A stretch of DNA of 64,000 nt, from the NCBI RefSeq assembly GCF_053078305.1, contig NZ_CP166879.1. The stretch is one strand, 5' to 3'. Below the pieces are notes generated by a model. The model ran no database searches. It had not been told where the DNA came from and saw only the letters and a program-made list of their open reading frames with translations. The position numbers and the translations under genes are program-made. Shown in pieces: positions 44,765-51,942 of this stretch (positions are counted from its first letter, which is position 1; every line of letters begins with the position of its first letter).

Positions 44765-45691
44765 ATGAATTATTCTTTAAAACAATTAAAGGTTTTCGTC
44801 ACAGTAGCGCAGGAGAAAAGTTTTAGTCGTGCAGGAGAGCGTATCGGCCTGAGCCAGTCGGCAGTGAGTCACAGTGTGAAGGAGCTGGAAAATCATACTG
44901 GTGTTCGCCTGCTGGACAGAACCACGCGTGAAGTGGTGCTTACAGATGCAGGGCAGCAGTTGGCTTTGCGTCTTGAGCGACTGCTGGATGAACTTAACAG
45001 CACGTTGCGCGATACCGGGCGTATGGGGCAACAACTGAGCGGAAAAGTTCGGGTCGCTGCCAGCCAGACCATTTCCGCGCATCTTATTCCGCAATGCATT
45101 GCTGAAAGCCATCGCCGCTATCCAGATATTCAGTTTGTCCTGCACGATCGTCCGCAGCAGTGGGTGATGGAAAGTATTCGCCAGGGAGATGTCGACTTTG
45201 GCATCGTCATCGATCCAGGCCCAGTGGGCGATCTGCAATGTGAAGCGATTCTTTCCGAGCCTTTCTTTCTGCTTTGCCATCGCGATAGCGCTTTGGCCGC
45301 GGAAGATTATGTACCCTGGCAGGCATTACAGGGAGCGAAATTGGTGTTGCAGGATTACGCGTCAGGCAGCCGACCGCTGATTGACGCAGCGCTGGCGCGC
45401 AATGGTATTCAGGCGAATATTGTGCAGGAGATTGGACATCCGGCGACGCTGTTCCCGATGGTAGCCGCAGGCATCGGCATCAGTATTCTTCCCGCACTGG
45501 CGCTACCATTGCCTGAAGGTAGCCCACTGGTGGTAAAGCGCATTACGCCGGTTGTTGAACGCCAGTTGATGCTGGTGCGCAGGAAGAACCGTTCACTTTC
45601 CACCGCCGCTGAAGCGTTATGGGACGTGGTACGAGACCAGGGCAATGCGCTAATGGCTGGGCGGGAAGGGGATCCGTTGTATCAGATATAG
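44765..45691 (+). CDS. yfeR: LysR-family transcriptional regulator
   Basis: 308 aa; N-terminal HTH ([38 protein letters not shown]); divergent from yfeH. Confidence 0.93.
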
Positions 45692-46023
45692 ATATCGATA
45701 TGAGTCGTATTTTCAACAGGATTTAGAAGGGATACATTCAGAGACAAACGCTGCTCTTTCTCCTGCGCCTTTTCTGCCTGCTGTCTCTGCAACTGCGCCA
45801 GTTGTGTTTCCAGTAGGGTGACTTGCTGTTGAATCAATTCGGCCTGTTTTTGCTTGTCTTCAGCACTGCCGCTAGTGTCTACAATCTCTTTAATTTGTTG
45901 AGTGAGTTTGATGATTTGCTGACTTATCCGCGCGATTTGTGAAGCAACATCGCTACCTTGTGATGCCCTGTTACTACTCTGTGTTTGTATGGAAGGAATT
46001 GAAGTTGAAGAGATAGTGGCCAT
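45682..46023 (-). CDS. FlxA-like small protein: Ser/Thr-rich N-terminus followed by Gln-rich predicted coiled coil
   Basis: 113-aa ORF with GAGGA 7 nt upstream of ATG; composition and the [12 protein letters not shown]...QLQRQQAEK segment resemble the FlxA family; family assignment from memory, not searched. Confidence 0.55.
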
Positions 46024-46112
46024 TGTTCAGTCCTCGTCACTGTACGAGGTAATATCGGTAGAAGAACAAGGAACTTGAGAAGAAAAATCAATCTTACAAA
46101 TCGCAGATAGCA

Positions 46113-46139
46113 AAAAAGCGCCTTTAGGGCGCTTTTTTA
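46113..46139 (-). terminator. intrinsic terminator of the valU-valX-valY-lysV tRNA operon
   Basis: AAAAAAGCGCC-TTTA-GGGCGCTTTTTT immediately 3' of lysV. Confidence 0.85.
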
Positions 46140-46142
46140 CAT

Positions 46143-46218
46143 TGGTGGGTCGTGCAGGATTCGAACCTGCGACCAATTGATTAAAAGTCAACTGCTCTAC
46201 CAACTGAGCTAACGACCC
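46143..46218 (-). tRNA. lysV: tRNA-Lys (anticodon UUU)
   Basis: Reverse complement reads GGGTCGTTAGCTCAGTTGGTAGAGCAGTTGACTTTTAATCAATTGGTCGCAGGTTCGAATCCTGCACGACCCACCA. Confidence 0.97.
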
Positions 46219-46222
46219 GAAG

Positions 46223-46298
46223 TGGTGGGTGATGACGGGATCGAACCGCCGACCCCCTCCTTGTAAGGGAGGTGCTCTCCCAGCTGAGCTAATCACCC
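46223..46298 (-). tRNA. valY: tRNA-Val (anticodon UAC)
   Basis: Reverse complement reads GGGTGATTAGCTCAGCTGGGAGAGCACCTCCCTTACAAGGAGGGGGTCGGCGGTTCGATCCCGTCATCACCCACCA. Confidence 0.97.
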
Positions 46299-46344
46299 AC
46301 TTCGGTACTTCACATTTTTACAAGAAATTTAGCTGGTGAGAAAG

Positions 46345-46420
46345 TGGTGGGTGATGACGGGATCGAACCGCCGACCCCCTCCTTGTAAGGGAGGTGCTCT
46401 CCCAGCTGAGCTAATCACCC
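46345..46420 (-). tRNA. valX: tRNA-Val (anticodon UAC)
   Basis: Identical 76-nt sequence to valY. Confidence 0.97.
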
Positions 46421-46464
46421 ACTTCTCAATTTCTTGCTACACGGCGGAGACTACATAAAGTAGT

Positions 46465-46540
46465 TGGTGGGTGATGACGGGATCGAACCGCCGACCCCCT
46501 CCTTGTAAGGGAGGTGCTCTCCCAGCTGAGCTAATCACCC
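46465..46540 (-). tRNA. valU: tRNA-Val (anticodon UAC)
   Basis: Identical 76-nt sequence to valY; first gene of the tRNA operon. Confidence 0.97.
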
Positions 46541-46557
46541 CCGCTGTGTGGAGTCGC

Positions 46558-46585
46558 ATTATAGGGAGAGTTCAAAATGAGTCAA
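46558..46585 (-). promoter_or_regulatory. sigma70 promoter of the valU tRNA operon (-35 TTGACT, 16-nt spacer, -10 TATAAT, GC-rich discriminator)
   Basis: Minus strand reads TTGACTCATTTTGAACTCTCCCTATAATGCGACTCC just upstream of valU; AT-rich UP/Fis-like region further upstream. Confidence 0.7.
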
Positions 46586-46798
46586 CGCATTTTCTAAAGA
46601 AATTGTTCGTTCGTCGTAAATTTAAGCAAGATGATCGCAAAACAGACTGTGTTGCGCAATTTGTCAACGAAAACAATAATGCGTAAGGTTGCAACCCGAA
46701 CTACATTGAGGAATCAGGCGGGAGTGATAGAATATCGCCCACTCAATTTTTCCAGGATTTGCCGGTTGTCGGCATCTTTCTAAACGTAAGGCCATTTC

Positions 46799-48214
46799 AT
46801 GAAAATCAAAACTCGCTTCGCGCCAAGCCCAACAGGCTATCTGCACGTTGGCGGCGCGCGTACTGCTCTTTACTCCTGGCTTTTTGCACGTAACCACGGC
46901 GGTGAGTTCGTGCTGCGTATTGAAGACACCGATCTTGAGCGTTCCACGCCGGAAGCTATCGAAGCCATTATGGATGGCATGAACTGGCTGAGCCTGGAGT
47001 GGGATGAAGGTCCGTACTACCAGACCAAACGTTTTGATCGCTACAACGCAGTGATCGATCAGATGCTGGAGGAGGGCACTGCTTATAAATGCTATTGCTC
47101 TAAAGAGCGCCTGGAAGCGCTGCGCGAAGAACAAATGGCGAAAGGTGAGAAGCCGCGTTATGACGGTCGCTGCCGCCACAGTCATGAGCATCACGCTGAT
47201 GATGAGCCGTGTGTCGTACGTTTTGCTAACCCGCAGGAAGGTTCTGTTGTTTTTGACGATCAGATCCGTGGTCCGATCGAGTTCAGCAACCAGGAGCTGG
47301 ATGATCTGATTATCCGCCGTACCGATGGTTCCCCAACCTATAACTTCTGTGTGGTTGTCGATGACTGGGATATGGAAATCACCCACGTTATCCGTGGCGA
47401 AGACCATATCAACAACACGCCACGCCAGATCAACATTCTTAAAGCCCTGAAAGCGCCGGTACCGGTTTACGCGCACGTTTCTATGATCAACGGCGATGAC
47501 GGCAAAAAACTGTCCAAACGTCACGGGGCAGTCAGCGTAATGCAGTATCGTGATGACGGTTATTTGCCAGAAGCACTGCTGAACTATCTGGTGCGTCTGG
47601 GCTGGTCCCACGGCGATCAGGAAATCTTCACTCGTGAAGAGATGATCAAATACTTCACTTTGAATGCCGTCAGCAAATCTGCCAGTGCGTTCAACACCGA
47701 CAAGTTGCTGTGGCTGAACCATCACTACATTAATGCGCTGCCGCCGGAGTATGTTGCTACTCACTTACAGTGGCACATTGAGCAGGAAAATATCGATACC
47801 CGTAACGGCCCGCAGCTGGCTGATCTGGTGAAACTGCTGGGCGAACGCTGCAAGACGCTGAAAGAGATGGCACAGAGCTGCCGTTATTTCTACGAAGATT
47901 TTGCTGAGTTCGATGCCGATGCCGCGAAAAAACATCTGCGTCCGGTAGCGCGTCAGCCGCTGGAAGTAGTTCGTGACAAACTGGCCGCGATTACTGACTG
48001 GACAGCTGAAAACGTTCATCACGCTATTCAGGCGACGGCGGATGAGCTGGAAGTGGGTATGGGTAAAGTTGGTATGCCGCTGCGTGTCGCCGTAACCGGT
48101 GCGGGGCAGTCTCCGGCACTGGATGTTACCGTTCACGCAATCGGTAAGACACGTAGCATTGAGCGTATCAACAAAGCGCTGGCCTTTATTGCTGAACGCG
48201 AAAACCAGCAGTAA
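46799..48214 (+). CDS. gltX: glutamyl-tRNA synthetase
   Basis: 471 aa; HIGH-type motif ([14 protein letters not shown]) and KMSKS-type motif (KLSKR). Confidence 0.98.
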
Positions 48215-48231
48215 TTAGCGTGTAAAAAGAT

Positions 48232-48263
48232 AAACGGCAGGAGATAATATCCTGCCGTTTTTT
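48232..48263. terminator. bidirectional intrinsic terminator between convergent gltX and yfeD
   Basis: AAACGGCAGGA-GATAATA-TCCTGCCGTTTTTT. Confidence 0.8.
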
Positions 48264-48265
48264 AT

Positions 48266-48658
48266 TTATGCTGATTCGTCAATATCGAGACGGGCGAGGA
48301 AATTGCGAATTCCTTCACGTGACAAAAATTGCGCGACTTTTTCCTGCTCAATGTCTGTCATATTATCTATCGCGTTGATGATTTGTCGATACGCCGGGGC
48401 GCGTGCTCCAGGAGCGTATTCAGCAATTCTCTCTTCAGCTTCCATCAACATTGGTGTGTTATGGAACGCAGGCGTGTTCTGAATAAACTCGCAAACTTGC
48501 GTATCGACCAGAATAAGTCTGGCACGACCGCCTTTCACGCCGGGAAATTTTTCCGTTTTCCAGCCTTTTTCTCTGATCCAACGGTTAACAGTTTGTTTAG
48601 CCACACCGAGGCATTCAGCCAGTTCTTCGGTGGTCATTTTATTGCGTAATCTTTTCAT
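48266..48658 (-). CDS. yfeD: putative DNA-binding protein YfeD (HTH, DUF1323-type)
   Basis: 130 aa; N-terminal segment TTEELAECLGVAKQTVNRWIREKGW paralogous to YfeC. Confidence 0.88.
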   Translation of the reverse strand: MKRLRNKMTTEELAECLGVAKQTVNRWIREKGWKTEKFPGVKGGRARLILVDTQVCEFIQNTPAFHNTPMLMEAEERIAEYAPGARAPAYRQIINAIDNMTDIEQEKVAQFLSREGIRNFLARLDIDESA

Positions 48659-48659
48659 A

Positions 48660-49004
48660 TTATTTGCTATCGCGAATCCCTAAGCGTTGTAACAATCCGA
48701 TAATCCCTTCCCGCAGAAGCAAGGATGTAAACTGTTTTTGTTCAACTGGCGTCATCTCTTTCGCCAGTGTCACCAGCAATACTTCAAGCGGCGCATCACC
48801 AGAAAGGGCAGGCGCTTCTCCCTGACCTTCTGGACGTTCAGCATTACGAATATATTCACGAACCTGTTCATTGACGTGAACCAGTCGGGCTTTGCCACCC
48901 TGGACGCCTGGTTTTGGTGACGTCGTCCAGCCTTCCTTGCGTACCCATTTATTAATGGTCTGGCGGCTATAGCCGGTCAGTCTGGCAAGTTCATCTGGCG
49001 TCAT
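48660..49004 (-). CDS. yfeC: putative DNA-binding protein YfeC (HTH, DUF1323-type)
   Basis: In frame of ORF 48660..49019; start chosen at second ATG (MTPDELARLTGYSRQTINKWVRKEGW), 114 aa; alternative start at 49019. Confidence 0.85.
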   Translation of the reverse strand: MTPDELARLTGYSRQTINKWVRKEGWTTSPKPGVQGGKARLVHVNEQVREYIRNAERPEGQGEAPALSGDAPLEVLLVTLAKEMTPVEQKQFTSLLLREGIIGLLQRLGIRDSK

Positions 49005-49178
49005 CCTCTCCTTGAACATAACAATTCCCTGAATGTATGTGGGTCTATTAGTAGTTCATTTTATAGCACCACTTTACAGGAAACCGTGACATGAATAACT
49101 ACTGAATGCGAGCGGTTTTCCAAAATTGTTCATTTGCCTGATTTTTCAGCGATTGAAACTACACGTTGCAATTTGCCG

Positions 49179-49207
49179 TTGACACATTCGGGCGGAATTC
49201 ATATGAT
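49179..49207 (+). promoter_or_regulatory. sigma70 promoter of the tRNA-Ala operon (-35 TTGACA, 17-nt spacer, -10 TATGAT, GC-rich discriminator)
   Basis: TTGACACATTCGGGCGGAATTCATATGATGCCGCCCGTC about 30 nt upstream of the first tRNA-Ala. Confidence 0.7.
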
Positions 49208-49239
49208 GCCGCCCGTCAACTCGACAAGCTTTACGTGAC

Positions 49240-49315
<76 letters not shown>

Positions 49316-49354
49316 AATTTTGCACCCAGCAAATTTGGTACGTAAACGCATCGT

Positions 49355-49430
<76 letters not shown>

Positions 49431-49469
49431 AATTTTGCACCCAGCAAATTTGGTACGTAAACGCATCGT

Positions 49470-49545
<76 letters not shown>

Positions 49546-49552
49546 AATTTCC

Positions 49553-49580
49553 AACCCTCGCTGCAAAGCGGGGGTTTTTT
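49553..49580 (+). terminator. intrinsic terminator after the tRNA-Ala array
   Basis: CCCTCGCT-GCAA-AGCGGGGG followed by TTTTTT. Confidence 0.75.
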
Positions 49581-49752
49581 GTCTCTGCTTTTTGCCGCTT
49601 TTGTAATACAGTCTACGTCCGGGTTAGCGCCGCCTGGTGAAAGCATCATTGGATGAAAAATCGGCAACAGGCTGGCCCTTGTTTGCTTCGCGATGCGAAT
49701 AAACTTATTATTTGTGTGCCTGAAAACCCCGATCAGTGAGAGTAGTGTACTC

Positions 49753-51942
49753 ATGTTTGTGGAGCATAACCTGATAAAAAATATCAAGATATTCACACTA
49801 GCGTTTACGCTCACCGTGGTACTTATTCAGCTTTCCCGTTTTATTTCGCCACTTGCCATTATCCATTCCAGTTATATCTTTCTGGCGTGGATGCCACTGT
49901 GCGTAATGCTGTCAATCTTGTTTATCTTTGGCTGGCGCGGTGTCGTTCCCGTTTTATGCGGGATGTTTTGCACCAATCTGTGGAACTTTCATCTCTCTTT
50001 TTTACAGACTGCGGTCATGCTCAGCAGCCAGACGTTTGTCGTGTTATGTGCCTGCGCAATATTACGCTGGCAGCTGGGGACGCGTTGGCGTTATGGATTG
50101 ACCAGCCGATATGTCTGGCAACGTCTGTTCTGGCTTGGTTTGGTGACGCCGATCGGCATCAAATGCAGCATGTATCTTGTGGGGAGCTTCTTTGATTTCC
50201 CGCTAAAGATATCCACCTTTTTCGGCGATGCGGATGCCATTTTCACGGTCGTTGATTTGCTAAGCCTTTTCACCGCGGTGCTGATTTACAACATGCTTTT
50301 CTACTATCTCACTCGCATGATTGTAAGTCCCCACTTTGCGCAGATATTGTGGCGCAGGGATATCGCTCCGTCGTTGGGCAAAGAGAAACGCGCATTTACC
50401 TTAAGCTGGCTGGCAGCGTTAAGCGTGCTGCTACTTCTGTTGTGCACACCTTATGAAAACGACTTTATTGCCGGTTACCTGGTACCCGTTTTCTTCATCA
50501 TCTTTACCCTCGGGGTCGGTAAGCTTCGCTATCCGTTTTTAAATCTCACCTGGGCTGTTTCAACGCTTTGCCTGCTGAATTACAACCAGAACTTTTTGCA
50601 AGGGGTGGAAACCGAATATTCGCTGGCATTTATTCTTGCGGTGCTGATTTCCTTTAGCGTTTGCCTGCTCTATATGGTGCGCATTTATCATCGCAGTGAA
50701 TGGCTTAATCGCCGCTGGCATTTGCAGGCGCTGACCGATCCGTTAACGCTCCTGCCCAACTTTCGTGCGTTGGAACAAGCGCCGGAGCAAGAGGCGGGCA
50801 AGAGTTTTTGCTGCCTGCGCATTGATAATCTTGAGTTTATGAGTCGTCATTACGGGTTAATGATGCGCGTTCACTGTATCCGATCAATTTACCGTACGCT
50901 GCTGCCGTTGATGCAGGAAAACGAAAAGTTGTATCAATTGCCGGGTAGTGAACTGCTGTTAGTGCTGAGCGGGCCGGAAACGGAAGGGCGACTCCAGCAT
51001 ATGGTTAACATCCTGAATAGTCGGCAAATTCACTGGAACAATACCGGGCTGGATATGGGCTATGGTGCTGCCTGGGGGCGTTTTGATGGAAATCAGGAAA
51101 CCCTGCAACCCTTGTTGGGGCAGTTAAGCTGGCTGGCGGAGCAATCCTGCGCACATCATCATGTGCTGGCGCTGGATAGCCGAGAGGAGATGGTTTCCGG
51201 GCAGACCACTAAACAGGTGCTATTGCTGAATACCATTCGCACGGCGTTAGATCAGGGTGATTTGCTGCTCTACGCCCAGCCAATTCGCAACAAAGAGGGT
51301 GAAGGTTATGATGAGATCCTCGCGCGACTGAAATATGACGGCGGCATTATGACCCCGGATAAGTTTCTGCCCCTTATTGCTCAGTTTAATCTTAGCGCGC
51401 GTTTTGATTTGCAAGTGCTGGAATCCTTGTTGAAGTGGCTGGCAACACACCCTTGCGACAAAAAAGGCCCGCGCTTTTCAGTTAATTTAATGCCGCTCAC
51501 GCTGCTGCAAAAGAATATTGCCGGGCGGATTATTCGTCTATTTAAGCGTTATCACATCTCCCCGCAGGCGGTCATTCTTGAGATCACCGAGGAGCAGGCG
51601 TTTTCTAACGCAGAAAGCAGCATGTACAACATCGAGCAGCTGCATAAGTTTGGTTTCCGGATTGCGATTGATGACTTTGGCACCGGCTATGCCAACTACG
51701 AACGGTTAAAGCGTTTGCAGGCTGATATCATCAAAATTGATGGCGTCTTTGTGAAAGATATCGTCACGAATACGCTGGATGCGATGATTGTGAGATCAAT
51801 TACCGATCTGGCGAAAGCGAAGTCATTGAGTGTGGTCGCGGAGTTTGTCGAGACGCAACAGCAACAGGCGCTATTGCATAAGCTCGGGGTGCAATATCTG
51901 CAAGGGTATTTGATTGGTCGCCCGCAGCCATTAGCTGATTAA
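49753..51942 (+). CDS. pdeA: c-di-GMP phosphodiesterase PdeA/YfeA (N-terminal MASE1-like membrane domain, degenerate GGDEF, EAL)
   Basis: In frame of ORF 49693..51942; start at ATG 49753 (MFVEHNLIKNIK...), 729 aa; EAL-domain motifs near C-terminus. Confidence 0.93.
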   Translation: MFVEHNLIKNIKIFTLAFTLTVVLIQLSRFISPLAIIHSSYIFLAWMPLCVMLSILFIFGWRGVVPVLCGMFCTNLWNFHLSFLQTAVMLSSQTFVVLCACAILRWQLGTRWRYGLTSRYVWQRLFWLGLVTPIGIKCSMYLVGSFFDFPLKISTFFGDADAIFTVVDLLSLFTAVLIYNMLFYYLTRMIVSPHFAQILWRRDIAPSLGKEKRAFTLSWLAALSVLLLLLCTPYENDFIAGYLVPVFFIIFTLGVGKLRYPFLNLTWAVSTLCLLNYNQNFLQGVETEYSLAFILAVLISFSVCLLYMVRIYHRSEWLNRRWHLQALTDPLTLLPNFRALEQAPEQEAGKSFCCLRIDNLEFMSRHYGLMMRVHCIRSIYRTLLPLMQENEKLYQLPGSELLLVLSGPETEGRLQHMVNILNSRQIHWNNTGLDMGYGAAWGRFDGNQETLQPLLGQLSWLAEQSCAHHHVLALDSREEMVSGQTTKQVLLLNTIRTALDQGDLLLYAQPIRNKEGEGYDEILARLKYDGGIMTPDKFLPLIAQFNLSARFDLQVLESLLKWLATHPCDKKGPRFSVNLMPLTLLQKNIAGRIIRLFKRYHISPQAVILEITEEQAFSNAESSMYNIEQLHKFGFRIAIDDFGTGYANYERLKRLQADIIKIDGVFVKDIVTNTLDAMIVRSITDLAKAKSLSVVAEFVETQQQQALLHKLGVQYLQGYLIGRPQPLAD

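Follow-up and report, generated by a model that had tools for sequence, protein, structure and literature searches.

YfeC and YfeD, a tandem pair of paralogous small DNA-binding proteins encoded between gltX and the tRNA-Ala genes of Escherichia coli

What a duplicated pair of small helix-turn-helix (HTH) genes does between gltX and an array of tRNA-Ala genes is the question raised by the locus described here, which lies in a window of 64,000 nucleotides (the whole stretch of DNA analysed; contig NZ_CP166879.1, assembly GCF_053078305.1). The pair corresponds to the already catalogued yfeC (b2398) and yfeD (b2399) of E. coli K-12, a real but ordinary locus of partly understood physiological role, and the locus DNA is 100% identical to annotated yfeD, yfeC, gltX and tRNA-Ala in several complete E. 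coli genomes. [quoted passage not shown] The two genes very likely form an operon for two paralogous small DNA-binding regulators, of which YfeC would repress its own operon and YfeD would act on separate GTTC-core sites. Since genes, family and DNA binding have all been catalogued before, the value of the analysis lies in clean-up: the toxin-antitoxin label that is still spreading in the literature is wrong, and the "MerR family" name of YfeD, the K-12 start of yfeC, the remote kinship to the Mu repressor and transposase and the dating of the duplication are likewise put in order.

Gene pair, translation start and paralogy

The features of the locus are collected in Table 1. As originally described, the pair is flanked by gltX (46799-48214, plus strand) and by tRNA-Ala(GGC) genes downstream in coordinates, and base 48659 alone parts the yfeC stop from the yfeD start. 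The same layout (gltX / yfeD-yfeC / tRNA-Ala) is found in K-12, where two tRNA-Ala genes lie beside yfeCD in contrast to three in the window strain. Rfam models matched only tRNAs between 45500 and 50000, and no evidence was found for a functional meaning of the gltX/tRNA-Ala position, which is one of conserved synteny.

Table 1. Features of the yfeC-yfeD locus and its flanks, in window coordinates
Feature	Position	Strand	Basis and remarks
Bidirectional terminator-like hairpin common to convergent gltX and yfeCD	48232..48260	.	11-bp stem, 6 G-C pairs, T-runs on both strands
yfeD CDS, 130 aa, faster-evolving yfeC paralogue	48266..48658	-	ORF list; PF07037 213.5 bits; HTH_17 31.4 bits; 38% identity to YfeC
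YfeD C-terminal helical domain, residues 83-123, M-T-x-x-E-Q...L-L-x-R-E-G-I-x-x-F-L-x-R-L, putative oligomerisation module	48290..48412	-	
YfeD N-terminal winged helix-turn-helix, residues 7-60, wing PGVKGGRARL	48479..48640	-	
One-base spacer between yfeC stop TAA and yfeD ATG	48659..48659	-	AAA TAA T ATG AAA; likely translational-coupling junction
yfeC CDS, 119 aa from conserved upstream ATG	48660..49019	-	ORF list; PF07037 173 bits; annotated yfeC in identical E. coli genomes; start conserved in 78 reconstructed genes
YfeC C-terminal helical domain, about residues 78-112	48684..48788	-	Helices 17-27 and 30-51 of fusion model; aligned to YfeD C-terminal domain
YfeC N-terminal winged helix-turn-helix, about residues 5-58, wing PGVQGGKARL	48846..49007	-	Aligned to YfeD winged helix-turn-helix; profile matches to MuA/Mu repressor
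Shine-Dalgarno-like AGGGAA, 5' of the 119-aa yfeC start	49025..49030	-	AGGAAA or AGGGAA in nearly all species loci
Predicted yfeCD promoter, extended -10 TGcTATAAA, no good -35	49060..49068	-	TG-n-TATAA in 20/20 genera aligned; T-A-T-A-A and TG invariant
Candidate YfeC operator O1 GTTTCCTGTAAA, spacer just upstream of -10	49073..49084	-	8.7 bits with GTTTCCGGAAAC matrix; inside conserved GTCAC..TTTC..TAAA block
Invariant CTCGCA, right arm of TGCGAG-N4-CTCGCA palindrome	49107..49112	-	Upstream alignment, 20 genera
Second YfeC-motif match ATTTTGGAAAAC, 42 bp from O1	49115..49126	-	8.2 bits; Escherichia-specific, not conserved outside Escherichia
Divergent tRNA-Ala operon promoter TTGACA, 17 nt, TATGAT, then GC-rich discriminator (context, outside yfeCD)	49179..49207	+	11/12 consensus matches; block nearly invariant across genera
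tRNA-Ala(GGC) genes (three)	49240-49315, 49355-49430, 49470-49545	+	

The translation of YfeD (ORF 48266..48658, minus strand) begins MKRLRNKMTTEEL, and that of YfeC (ORF 48660..49019, minus strand) begins MFKERMTPDEL. A length of 114 residues had been assigned to the gene ending at 49019, but that coordinate gives a 119-residue YfeC; the 114-residue form comes from K-12, where the gene is annotated from the second ATG (49004), and for the identical strain XH990 the NCBI pipeline gives 119 residues. None of the 78 reconstructed genes departs from the upstream ATG or from the peptide M-[F/I/L]-K-E-[R/M]-M that follows it. All but two of them have Arg as residue 5, for which four synonymous codons are used (AGG, CGG, CGA, CGT); the two exceptions, both from Escherichia species, have Met. 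Because this ATG, its peptide and a preceding AGGAA/AGGGA Shine-Dalgarno-like box are conserved, the longer form is favoured, and comparison of the sequences suggests that the K-12 start of yfeC is probably annotated five codons too short.

The central reading of the locus as a tandem of paralogous small HTH proteins was supported by the family scores and by the tight conserved junction. In a BLASTP comparison, YfeC and YfeD align over 127 residues (38% identity, 55% positives, E=3e-27), so that the pairwise similarity is significant. The motif T..ELA...G...QT.N.W.R..GW.T...PGV.GG.ARL noted in their N-terminal segments is present, but the similarity is not N-terminal alone and extends over the whole length to a C-terminal "MT..EQ....LL.REGI...L.RL.I" segment. 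Both proteins match PF07037, "Transcription regulator YfeC-like" (formerly DUF1323), far above its gathering cut-off of 22.9 bits: the score is 213.5 bits for YfeD (residues 8-129) and 173 bits for YfeC (residues 6-118), each covering model positions 1-122, and the model was matched by 20 of 20 diverse members of a family alignment.

Architecture, distribution and evolution

In each protein, a winged helix-turn-helix of excisionase/Mu-repressor type occupies the N-terminal part, and a disordered linker joins it to a helical C-terminal domain that is specific to the family. In the AlphaFold2 model of YfeD (pLDDT 73), the winged helix-turn-helix spans residues 7-60, disorder spans 67-80 and helices span 83-123; the most conserved feature of the winged domain is its beta-hairpin wing, G-V-(K/Q)-G-G-(K/R)-A. 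The C-terminal domain probably mediates oligomerisation, a role for which the one basis is a moderate-confidence model of the two C-terminal domains as a fusion, numbered such that its residue 1 is YfeC residue 62.

This very small family hardly extends beyond Enterobacteriaceae, in whose core genome yfeCD is a probable operon. The locus was present in 5,425 of 5,426 complete E. coli genomes, and yfeC and yfeD stood in tandem in all 80 species loci fetched. Of the 79 junctions that were reconstructed, 77 have a gap of -20 to +9 nt between the two genes, and in 48 the gap is 1 nt. As the alignment used for the scan carried YfeD-specific patterns, genera with a divergent second copy were looked up separately: Cedecea possesses the tandem pair, and Chimaeribacter (Yersiniaceae) has one copy in the gltX-convergent position. 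The duplication is considered old because one genus of Yersiniaceae has a single copy. YfeC branches are short and YfeD branches long in a neighbour-joining tree, and dN of yfeD is about twice that of yfeC, which means that yfeD evolves about twice as fast; dN/dS, where dS could be estimated, is 0.06-0.17 for yfeC and 0.07-0.14 for yfeD. One tandem duplication at the base of Enterobacteriaceae probably gave rise to the pair, after which the downstream copy diverged faster. An origin from phages or plasmids was rejected: no homologue turned up among 50,697 phage records in a tblastn search with YfeC; YfeD matches in a plasmid collection look chromosomal because they are mostly megabase-sized records or records carrying both genes; Foldseek against viral structures gave matches to the N-terminal domain alone, none at E<0.001; and similarity to phrog_4151 (E=7e-9) and to the Mu-like transposase phrog_310 is confined to the N-terminal part.

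These data also bear on the literature reading of yfeD/yfeC as a type II toxin-antitoxin pair, which was predicted "with high confidence" by RASTA-Bacteria in 2007 (PMC2374986) and repeated in a transposon-sequencing paper of 2018 (PMC5847654). Two small adjacent genes, a near-overlapping junction and an HTH protein do make up the generic layout of such modules, and a weak Pfam YdaS_toxin match was obtained at 20.3 bits, below the cut-off of 30. However, the partners are paralogues of the same fold, searches of Pfam, NCBIfam and PADLOC gave no toxin family above threshold, the distribution of the pair, core and syntenic throughout Enterobacteriaceae, is neither patchy nor mobile, it is absent from phages and its plasmid records are mostly chromosome-like. 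Moreover, K-12, K1 and EHEC strains survive the loss of yfeC, even when yfeD is raised about 20-fold, and both proteins yield ChIP-exo DNA-binding profiles. Based on the paralogous HTH pair, the lack of a toxin domain, the core locus and the viable deletions, the toxin-antitoxin reading was rejected as largely refuted, with next to no probability left to it.

Transcription signals, DNA binding and a possible circuit

Co-transcription of yfeC and yfeD, previously deduced from their spacing, is very probable in view of the 1-nt gap, the conserved tight junction, the sole terminator-like hairpin after yfeD and the conserved TGnTATAA upstream. A simple sigma-70 -35/-10 scan did not report a yfeC promoter, and the promoter is accordingly predicted from conservation only. 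An inverted-repeat scan of the intergenic region yielded nothing useful for yfeC; in the upstream alignment, a TGCGAG-N4-CTCGCA palindrome was found in most genera, its left arm being lost in Escherichia.

Association of both YfeC and YfeD with DNA in vivo has already been validated by the published ChIP-exo study of Gao et al. 2021, which reported 50 YfeC sites and 36 YfeD sites together with RNA-seq of a yfeC deletion (PMC8464067). The proteins carried C-terminal 8xmyc tags; in the case of yfeC, this places the tag at both the putative oligomerisation domain and the junction with yfeD. YfeC is listed as a confirmed transcription factor in RegulonDB v12, and its K-12 RefSeq product is "DNA-binding transcriptional dual regulator". 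Re-analysis of 20 published peaks gave the YfeC palindrome GTTTCCGGAAAC, with a log-likelihood of 29.4 against 18.4 +/- 2.3 in shuffles (z about 4.7); its matrix, of low information content (6.6 bits), reached at least 9 bits in 9 of the 20 peaks on which it was trained, against a background of 3.5%. The YfeD peaks contain a different, GTTC-core motif, which gives z=3.1 when taken as a non-palindromic 8-mer and z=4.3 when taken as a weak 12-mer palindrome. Only 1 of 15 YfeD peaks reached 9 bits with the YfeC matrix, and did so off-centre; the paralogues do not have one simple motif in common.

Two matches of at least 8 bits to the YfeC matrix lie within 220 bp at the locus, compared with 0.2 expected from the background rate. 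The one next to the -10 element may be a YfeC operator (O1), as judged from sequence; its arm spacing in other genera differs from that of the ChIP-derived palindrome. The published "yfeC" ChIP-exo peak was not counted as support for autoregulation: with a v2 to v3 offset that we take to be about +1978, it falls on alaX, at the 3' end of this tRNA gene and some 400 bp upstream of yfeC, and scores 1.6 bits with the matrix, which is no match.

In the yfeC deletion, yfeD was up by log2 4.33 (padj 5e-133), or about 20-fold, with yfeCD listed by the authors as a direct target, and ybaQ was down by log2 5.16 (PMC8464067). These are the only strong, specific transcript changes in that strain, and YfeD has a peak (signal/noise 29.7) in the upstream region of ybaQ, 25-32 bp from its ATG. 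The rise of yfeD together with the fall of ybaQ suggests a cascade from YfeC to YfeD and calls for caution on the wider regulon: many "up" genes are very short and also altered in the unrelated yciT deletion, so much of the published YfeC regulon may be technical. The rise of yfeD could itself be an artefact of the construction of the deletion.

From these observations, the following circuit is proposed. The operon would be read from the conserved extended -10 promoter, yfeD would be translated in tight coupling with yfeC, and transcription would stop at the hairpin common with gltX. YfeC would bind GTTTCCGGAAAC-like palindromes, including the related site in its own promoter, and so repress the operon and set the level of YfeD; YfeD would in turn act on different GTTC-core sites, the upstream region of ybaQ among them. 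Loss of autorepression may thus account for the rise of yfeD, and a regulatory link from YfeD to ybaQ would account for the second change. A bolder version, which we regard as rather unlikely, sees a host-domesticated Mu-type repressor module that works as a two-tier switch: autorepression by YfeC would gate YfeD, released YfeD would silence small HTH regulators such as ybaQ, both proteins would bind at sfsB/nlp, most of the "YfeC regulon" would be YfeD-mediated or technical, and a C-terminal heterodimer could add control by titration. A yfeC mutant of E. coli K1 colonised the small intestine of neonatal rats poorly, and the physiological role may therefore merit targeted study.

It is improbable that YfeC and YfeD act mainly as an obligate heterodimer or hetero-oligomer, with the operon supplying equimolar subunits of one regulator. 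The short and conserved junction points to coupled synthesis at a roughly stoichiometric ratio, the genes are in tandem in every species locus fetched, the recognition helices hardly differ (QT[IV]N[KR]W[VI]R), and the C-terminal-domain fusion, modelled from a species-paired alignment, shows ordered helices at pLDDT 82-90 (pTM 0.57, with 36% of the chain being linker), although such a fusion cannot separate heterodimers from homodimers. Nevertheless, despite these recognition helices the ChIP-exo site lists overlap at one location only and the derived motifs differ, the yfeC deletion is viable with yfeD about 20-fold up, which argues against a fixed ratio, and Chimaeribacter manages with a single copy.

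The proteins might instead be architectural, of nucleoid-associated type, binding cooperatively head-to-tail on short loose repeats as Xis, BldC, pSK1 Par and RacA do, rather than dimeric operator-specific factors, a reading that we hold to be quite improbable. Structurally, the DNA-binding domain is indeed matched best by Pukovnik Xis, pSK1 Par, BldC and RacA, 40% of the YfeC ChIP-exo sites are intragenic (PMC8464067), the best YfeD motif is a short GTTC-core element, and both motifs are low in information; on the other hand, the palindrome in the YfeC peaks is significant against shuffles, the sites number only 36-50 and not hundreds, and Xis and BldC lack the additional C-terminal domain. 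Autorepression by YfeC with separate YfeD sites remains the preferred reading.

Comparison with known DNA-binding families

YfeC and YfeD possess the winged-helix fold with a GVKGGKA wing that characterizes the HTH Mu-type domain (PF02316; PDB 1QPM/1G4D, 1TNS), and the Chimaeribacter homologue is labelled "HTH Mu-type domain-containing" in UniProt. The PF02316 threshold of 23.3 bits was not reached by YfeC (14.6 bits, E=0.041), and YfeD was not listed, whereas 6 of 20 family members matched it (best E=3.1e-6). A profile of the family found MuA domain I-alpha (1TNS, E=4.8e-5) and the DNA-binding domain of the Mu repressor (E=0.027), and the YfeC sequence by itself found 1TNS (E=0.01). Because the E. 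coli proteins are sub-threshold and the family-level matches are significant, the Mu-type relationship is regarded as real but remote. In contrast to Mu, the pair has no transposase, no Mu-repressor leucine zipper or C-terminal region and no phage context, and its C-terminal domain is unrelated to any solved structure.

YfeD scores 31.4 bits on the model of HTH_17 (PF12728), an excisionase-family domain. Members of the excisionase/BldC/pSK1 Par/TorI class (MerR-like winged-helix; HTH_17, TIGR01764) are single-domain proteins of about 50-70 residues that form head-to-tail multimers on DNA, whereas YfeC and YfeD add a linker and a helical domain of about 45 residues, lack a recombinase partner and, in the case of YfeC, have palindromic peaks. 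No association with an integrase or mobile element was found, the neighbours being gltX, tRNA genes, pdeA and nupC in every genome examined.

MerR regulators are related to YfeC and YfeD distantly, through their helix-turn-helix-wing topology. YfeC scores 12.6 bits against the MerR_1 cut-off of 21.6, YfeD is not listed, and weak matches occur in no more than 5 of 20 relatives; family models thus give no support to the product name "MerR family" that the NCBI pipeline attached to YfeD. Unlike MerR proteins, the pair lacks the effector-binding C-terminus and the long antiparallel coiled-coil dimerisation helix, in place of which a disordered linker and short helices are modelled, and the predicted yfeCD promoter is an ordinary extended -10 rather than the type with a 19-20 bp spacer. 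With the PF07037 YfeC-like family there is no essential difference: it comprises the same genes, and both proteins match its model end to end.

The yfeC-yfeD gene pair and its surroundings

The paired genes of the window are the named, core E. coli genes yfeD and yfeC. At 100% identity, the DNA of positions 48100-49250 recurs in several complete E. coli genomes, where the genes are annotated under these names; the locus is matched in 5,425 of 5,426 complete E. coli genomes, and K-12 has the same gene layout as the window. The first-pass annotation had described two paralogous minus-strand genes 1 nt apart, which is borne out by the open reading frames and by the junction AAA TAA T ATG with its single intervening base, 48659. 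Pairwise alignment of the two proteins is significant (38% identity over 127 residues, E=3e-27); the likeness had been placed in the N-terminal segment, which does align, but it is not confined there, as the C-terminal block MT..EQ....LL.REGI...L.RL.I aligns as well. The reading of the pair was judged correct and the observation confirmed, with one adjustment: the length of 130 aa holds for YfeD, whereas the 114 aa given for YfeC is the K-12 annotation, which starts at the second ATG (49004), and a start at 49019 yields the 119 aa annotated by the NCBI pipeline in strain XH990.

In 78 of 78 reconstructed genes yfeC has the upstream ATG and keeps the peptide M-[F/I/L]-K-E-[R/M]-M, and an AGGAA/AGGGA box is conserved 6-7 nt upstream of this longer start. 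Residue 5 is Arg, encoded by four synonymous codons (AGG, CGG, CGA, and CGT), in all but two of the 78 genes, and Met in two Escherichia species. Because the amino acid is conserved despite nucleotide changes, the comparison argues for translation of the five extra codons.

Further features surround the pair. A Gln/Ser-rich ORF, named 'FlxA-like family protein' in the annotation of strain XH990, adjoins the tRNA Val-Val-Val-Lys operon and shares 10 nt with the 3' end of yfeR, a LysR-type gene. An 'RtT sRNA' is annotated in the identical genome XH990 just 3' of tRNA-Lys; an Rfam scan of 45500-50000 at the gathering threshold returned tRNAs and nothing else. The three tRNA-Ala(GGC) genes are identical and form a perfect tandem array, compared with two copies in K-12 and in the otherwise 100%-identical best-matching genomes, where the 601-base query is covered over 486 bases only, in two pieces.

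Coordinates of features in the window and of predicted segments of YfeD
Feature	Position	Strand	Remark
yfeR	44765-45691	+	LysR-type gene
FlxA-like ORF	45682-46023	-	113 aa
RtT sRNA	about 45990-46115	-	annotated in XH990
gltX	46799-48214	+	convergent with the pair
Terminator-like hairpin	48232-48260		3' of yfeD, common to gltX
yfeD	48266-48658	-	130 aa
yfeC	48660-49019	-	119 aa
TGcTATAAA element	49068-49060	-	downstream neighbour of first YfeC-motif match
First YfeC-motif match	49073-49084	-	GTTTCCTGTAAA on yfeC strand; directly upstream of TGcTATAAA
Region of the TGCGAG-N4-CTCGCA palindrome	49107-49126
Second YfeC-motif match	49115-49126		Escherichia-specific
Three tRNA-Ala(GGC) genes	49240-49545	+	divergent from the pair
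tRNA-Ala tandem array	49240-49550		115-bp repeat, 2.7 copies, 100% match
YfeD strand-helix-helix-hairpin-helix domain	residues 7-60		AlphaFold2 model
YfeD disordered stretch	residues 67-80		AlphaFold2 model
YfeD short helical domain	residues 83-123		AlphaFold2 model

Fold, family and evolution

Pfam PF07037 ('Transcription regulator YfeC-like') matches both proteins end to end, with 213.5 bits for YfeD and 173 bits for YfeC (cut-off 22.9). When 1.84 billion representative proteins were searched exhaustively with a profile, only 236 matched at E<=0.001, some twenty of them full-length, and the named members belong to Enterobacteriaceae genera and Chimaeribacter (Yersiniaceae), which makes for a very small, lineage-restricted family. 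The DNA-binding domain proposed in the first-pass annotation is recovered by structure prediction as a winged-helix domain in the AlphaFold2 model of YfeD (pLDDT 73), and by Mu-type profile matches. By sequence, the family profile matches 1TNS, the I-alpha domain of the MuA transposase (E=4.8e-5), and 1G4D, the Mu repressor (E=0.027), the Mu-type alignment passing through the wing, W...GVKGGKA. The Pfam Mu DNA-binding domain is matched by 6 of 20 family members (best E=3e-6), E. coli YfeC and YfeD themselves falling below its threshold, and the Chimaeribacter homologue is labelled 'HTH Mu-type' in UniProt. Given these matches and this label, the domain is a remote member of the Mu-type branch of excisionase/MerR-like winged helices.

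Relatives of the C-terminal domain, sought by sequence and by structure, were not detectable. When the C-terminal domains of YfeC and YfeD from the same genomes (51 distinct pairs) were fused through a 20-residue linker, the predicted structure showed ordered helices at pLDDT 82-90 and a pTM of 0.57, with the linker making up one third of the chain. This model is compatible with the two domains packing together, hetero- and homo-dimers being inseparable by it.

Scanning one genome per species gave 80 loci, none of them outside the Enterobacteriaceae and unclassified metagenomic bins. In all 80, yfeC lies directly upstream of yfeD on the same strand, and in most gltX is convergent with the pair. 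Of 79 reconstructed junctions, 48 have a gap of 1 nt from yfeC stop to yfeD start, and in 77 the gap is within -20 to +9 nt; the exceptions are one locus with a truncated yfeC (+50 nt) and one with only a partial yfeC. The only terminator-like hairpin lies 3' of yfeD. These tight junctions fit translational coupling as well as the co-transcription read earlier from the 1-nt gap. Cedecea carries a tandem pair with a 47-nt gap at the corresponding position and Chimaeribacter a single gene, still convergent with gltX, which places one tandem duplication at about the base of the Enterobacteriaceae.

Across genera, identity is 66-94% for YfeC versus only 45-98% for YfeD, and a neighbour-joining tree has short branches in the YfeC clade and long ones in the YfeD clade. 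Relative to K-12, yfeD has about double the dN of yfeC; dN/dS, where dS was estimable, is 0.06-0.17 for yfeC and 0.07-0.14 for yfeD, and both genes are under purifying selection. No phage homologues of the pair were found, and most plasmid-database matches, being megabase-sized records or lying in records with both genes, look like chromosomal sequence. Decay of the pair is occasional among the loci fetched for comparison (L006, L081, and L054). Only the last ~38 codons of yfeC are left in Escherichia sp. MOD1-EC7003, yfeC is truncated and yfeD rearranged in Enterobacter sp. EA-1, and yfeD and gltX are frameshifted in one Trabulsiella assembly, which may be an assembly error.

Binding sites and regulatory effects

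Both proteins were tagged by Gao et al. 2021 (PMC8464067), whose ChIP-exo lists comprise 50 sites for YfeC and 36 for YfeD. They gave the YfeC motif as a 'TTC-rich inverted repeat', reported differential expression of 205 genes on deletion of yfeC, and put YfeC forward as a 'local regulator' that mainly represses and is linked to the release of extracellular DNA. RegulonDB v12 counts YfeC as a confirmed transcription factor. An E. coli K1 yfeC::kan mutant showed poor colonisation of the neonatal rat small intestine and reduced lethality, and deleting yfeC in EHEC did not lower LEE1 transcription.

Palindrome-constrained expectation-maximisation on K-12 sequence around 20 YfeC peaks converged on GTTTCCGGAAAC (log-likelihood 29.4 versus 18.4 +/- 2.3 in 12 shuffles). 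The matrix reaches at least 9 bits in 9 of 20 peaks against 3.5% background expected per peak-sized window, an enrichment that is optimistic as the matrix was trained on the peaks it scored. The 220-bp yfeC/tRNA-Ala intergenic region holds two matches of at least 8 bits, versus 0.2 expected. The first match and the neighbouring TGnTATAA both lie within blocks conserved in 20 genera, and are read as a candidate operator located in the spacer of a putative extended -10 promoter. With an offset of about +1978 from genome version 2 to version 3, which is consistent with the other peak-to-gene assignments that were checked, the published 'yfeC' ChIP-exo peak maps to the 3' end of alaX, a tRNA gene, at a distance of about 400 bp from yfeC. 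Because the YfeC motif has no match there, this off-promoter peak was set aside as evidence of autoregulation. A 16-bp palindrome, TGCGAG-N4-CTCGCA, also occurs between the divergent tRNA-Ala and yfeC promoters in most Enterobacteriaceae genera (loci L025-L080); its right arm is invariant, and its left arm is degenerate in Escherichia, Citrobacter, and Salmonella.

What the YfeD peaks have in common is a GTTC core (RYAWGTTC), located at the edge of the peak, and against shuffles a non-palindromic 8-mer (z=3.1) and a weak 12-mer palindrome (z=4.3) emerge; the YfeC palindrome reaches at least 9 bits in only 1 of 15 YfeD peaks. The half-sites GTT(T)C are alike, as the nearly identical recognition helices of the two proteins would predict. 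The two site sets nevertheless have one common location only, the 5' end of sfsB (nlp), which is homologous to Ner of phage Mu; the location may be a genuine target or a spot that is over-precipitated in general. It lies at about 3334932-3334961 of K-12 NC_000913.3 (locus L097), with a YciT peak 40-70 bp away.

In the RNA-seq table of the yfeC deletion, three genes show strong gene-specific changes, namely yfeC itself, yfeD (log2 +4.33, padj 5e-133), and ybaQ (log2 -5.16), and the ybaQ start codon is preceded, at 25-32 bp, by a YfeD ChIP-exo peak (signal/noise 29.7). The rise of yfeD, the fall of ybaQ, and this peak suggest a cascade: YfeC would repress yfeD, and YfeD in excess would repress ybaQ. 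The yfeD increase may also have a polar or read-through cause, the method of deletion construction not being stated in PMC8464067. Many other 'up' genes are very short (rpmJ, rpmH, rpmG, rpmF, rpmI, rpmD, acrZ, lpp, mgrB, and ilvL among them), and several changed genes, including acrZ, lpp, ygdR, cus genes, and fim genes, also change in an unrelated yciT deletion; we suspect a library-preparation effect. The dominance of short genes and this overlap point to technical bias in part of the published YfeC regulon.

Comparison with known systems

The evidence best supports an autoregulated operon composed of two diverged paralogues, in which YfeC controls the level of YfeD; each protein combines a Mu-type/excisionase-like winged-helix domain with a private C-terminal domain. 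The pair was predicted as a toxin-antitoxin system by RASTA-Bacteria in 2007, a label still repeated, and this reading is unsupported: both proteins have one fold and both lack a toxin domain, the locus belongs to the core genome and is syntenic, and yfeC deletions are viable. NCBI names YfeD a 'MerR family transcriptional regulator', a name without support from MerR family models; the YfeC-like model fits it instead, at 213 bits. The pair represents catalogued, lineage-specific small regulators rather than a new system.
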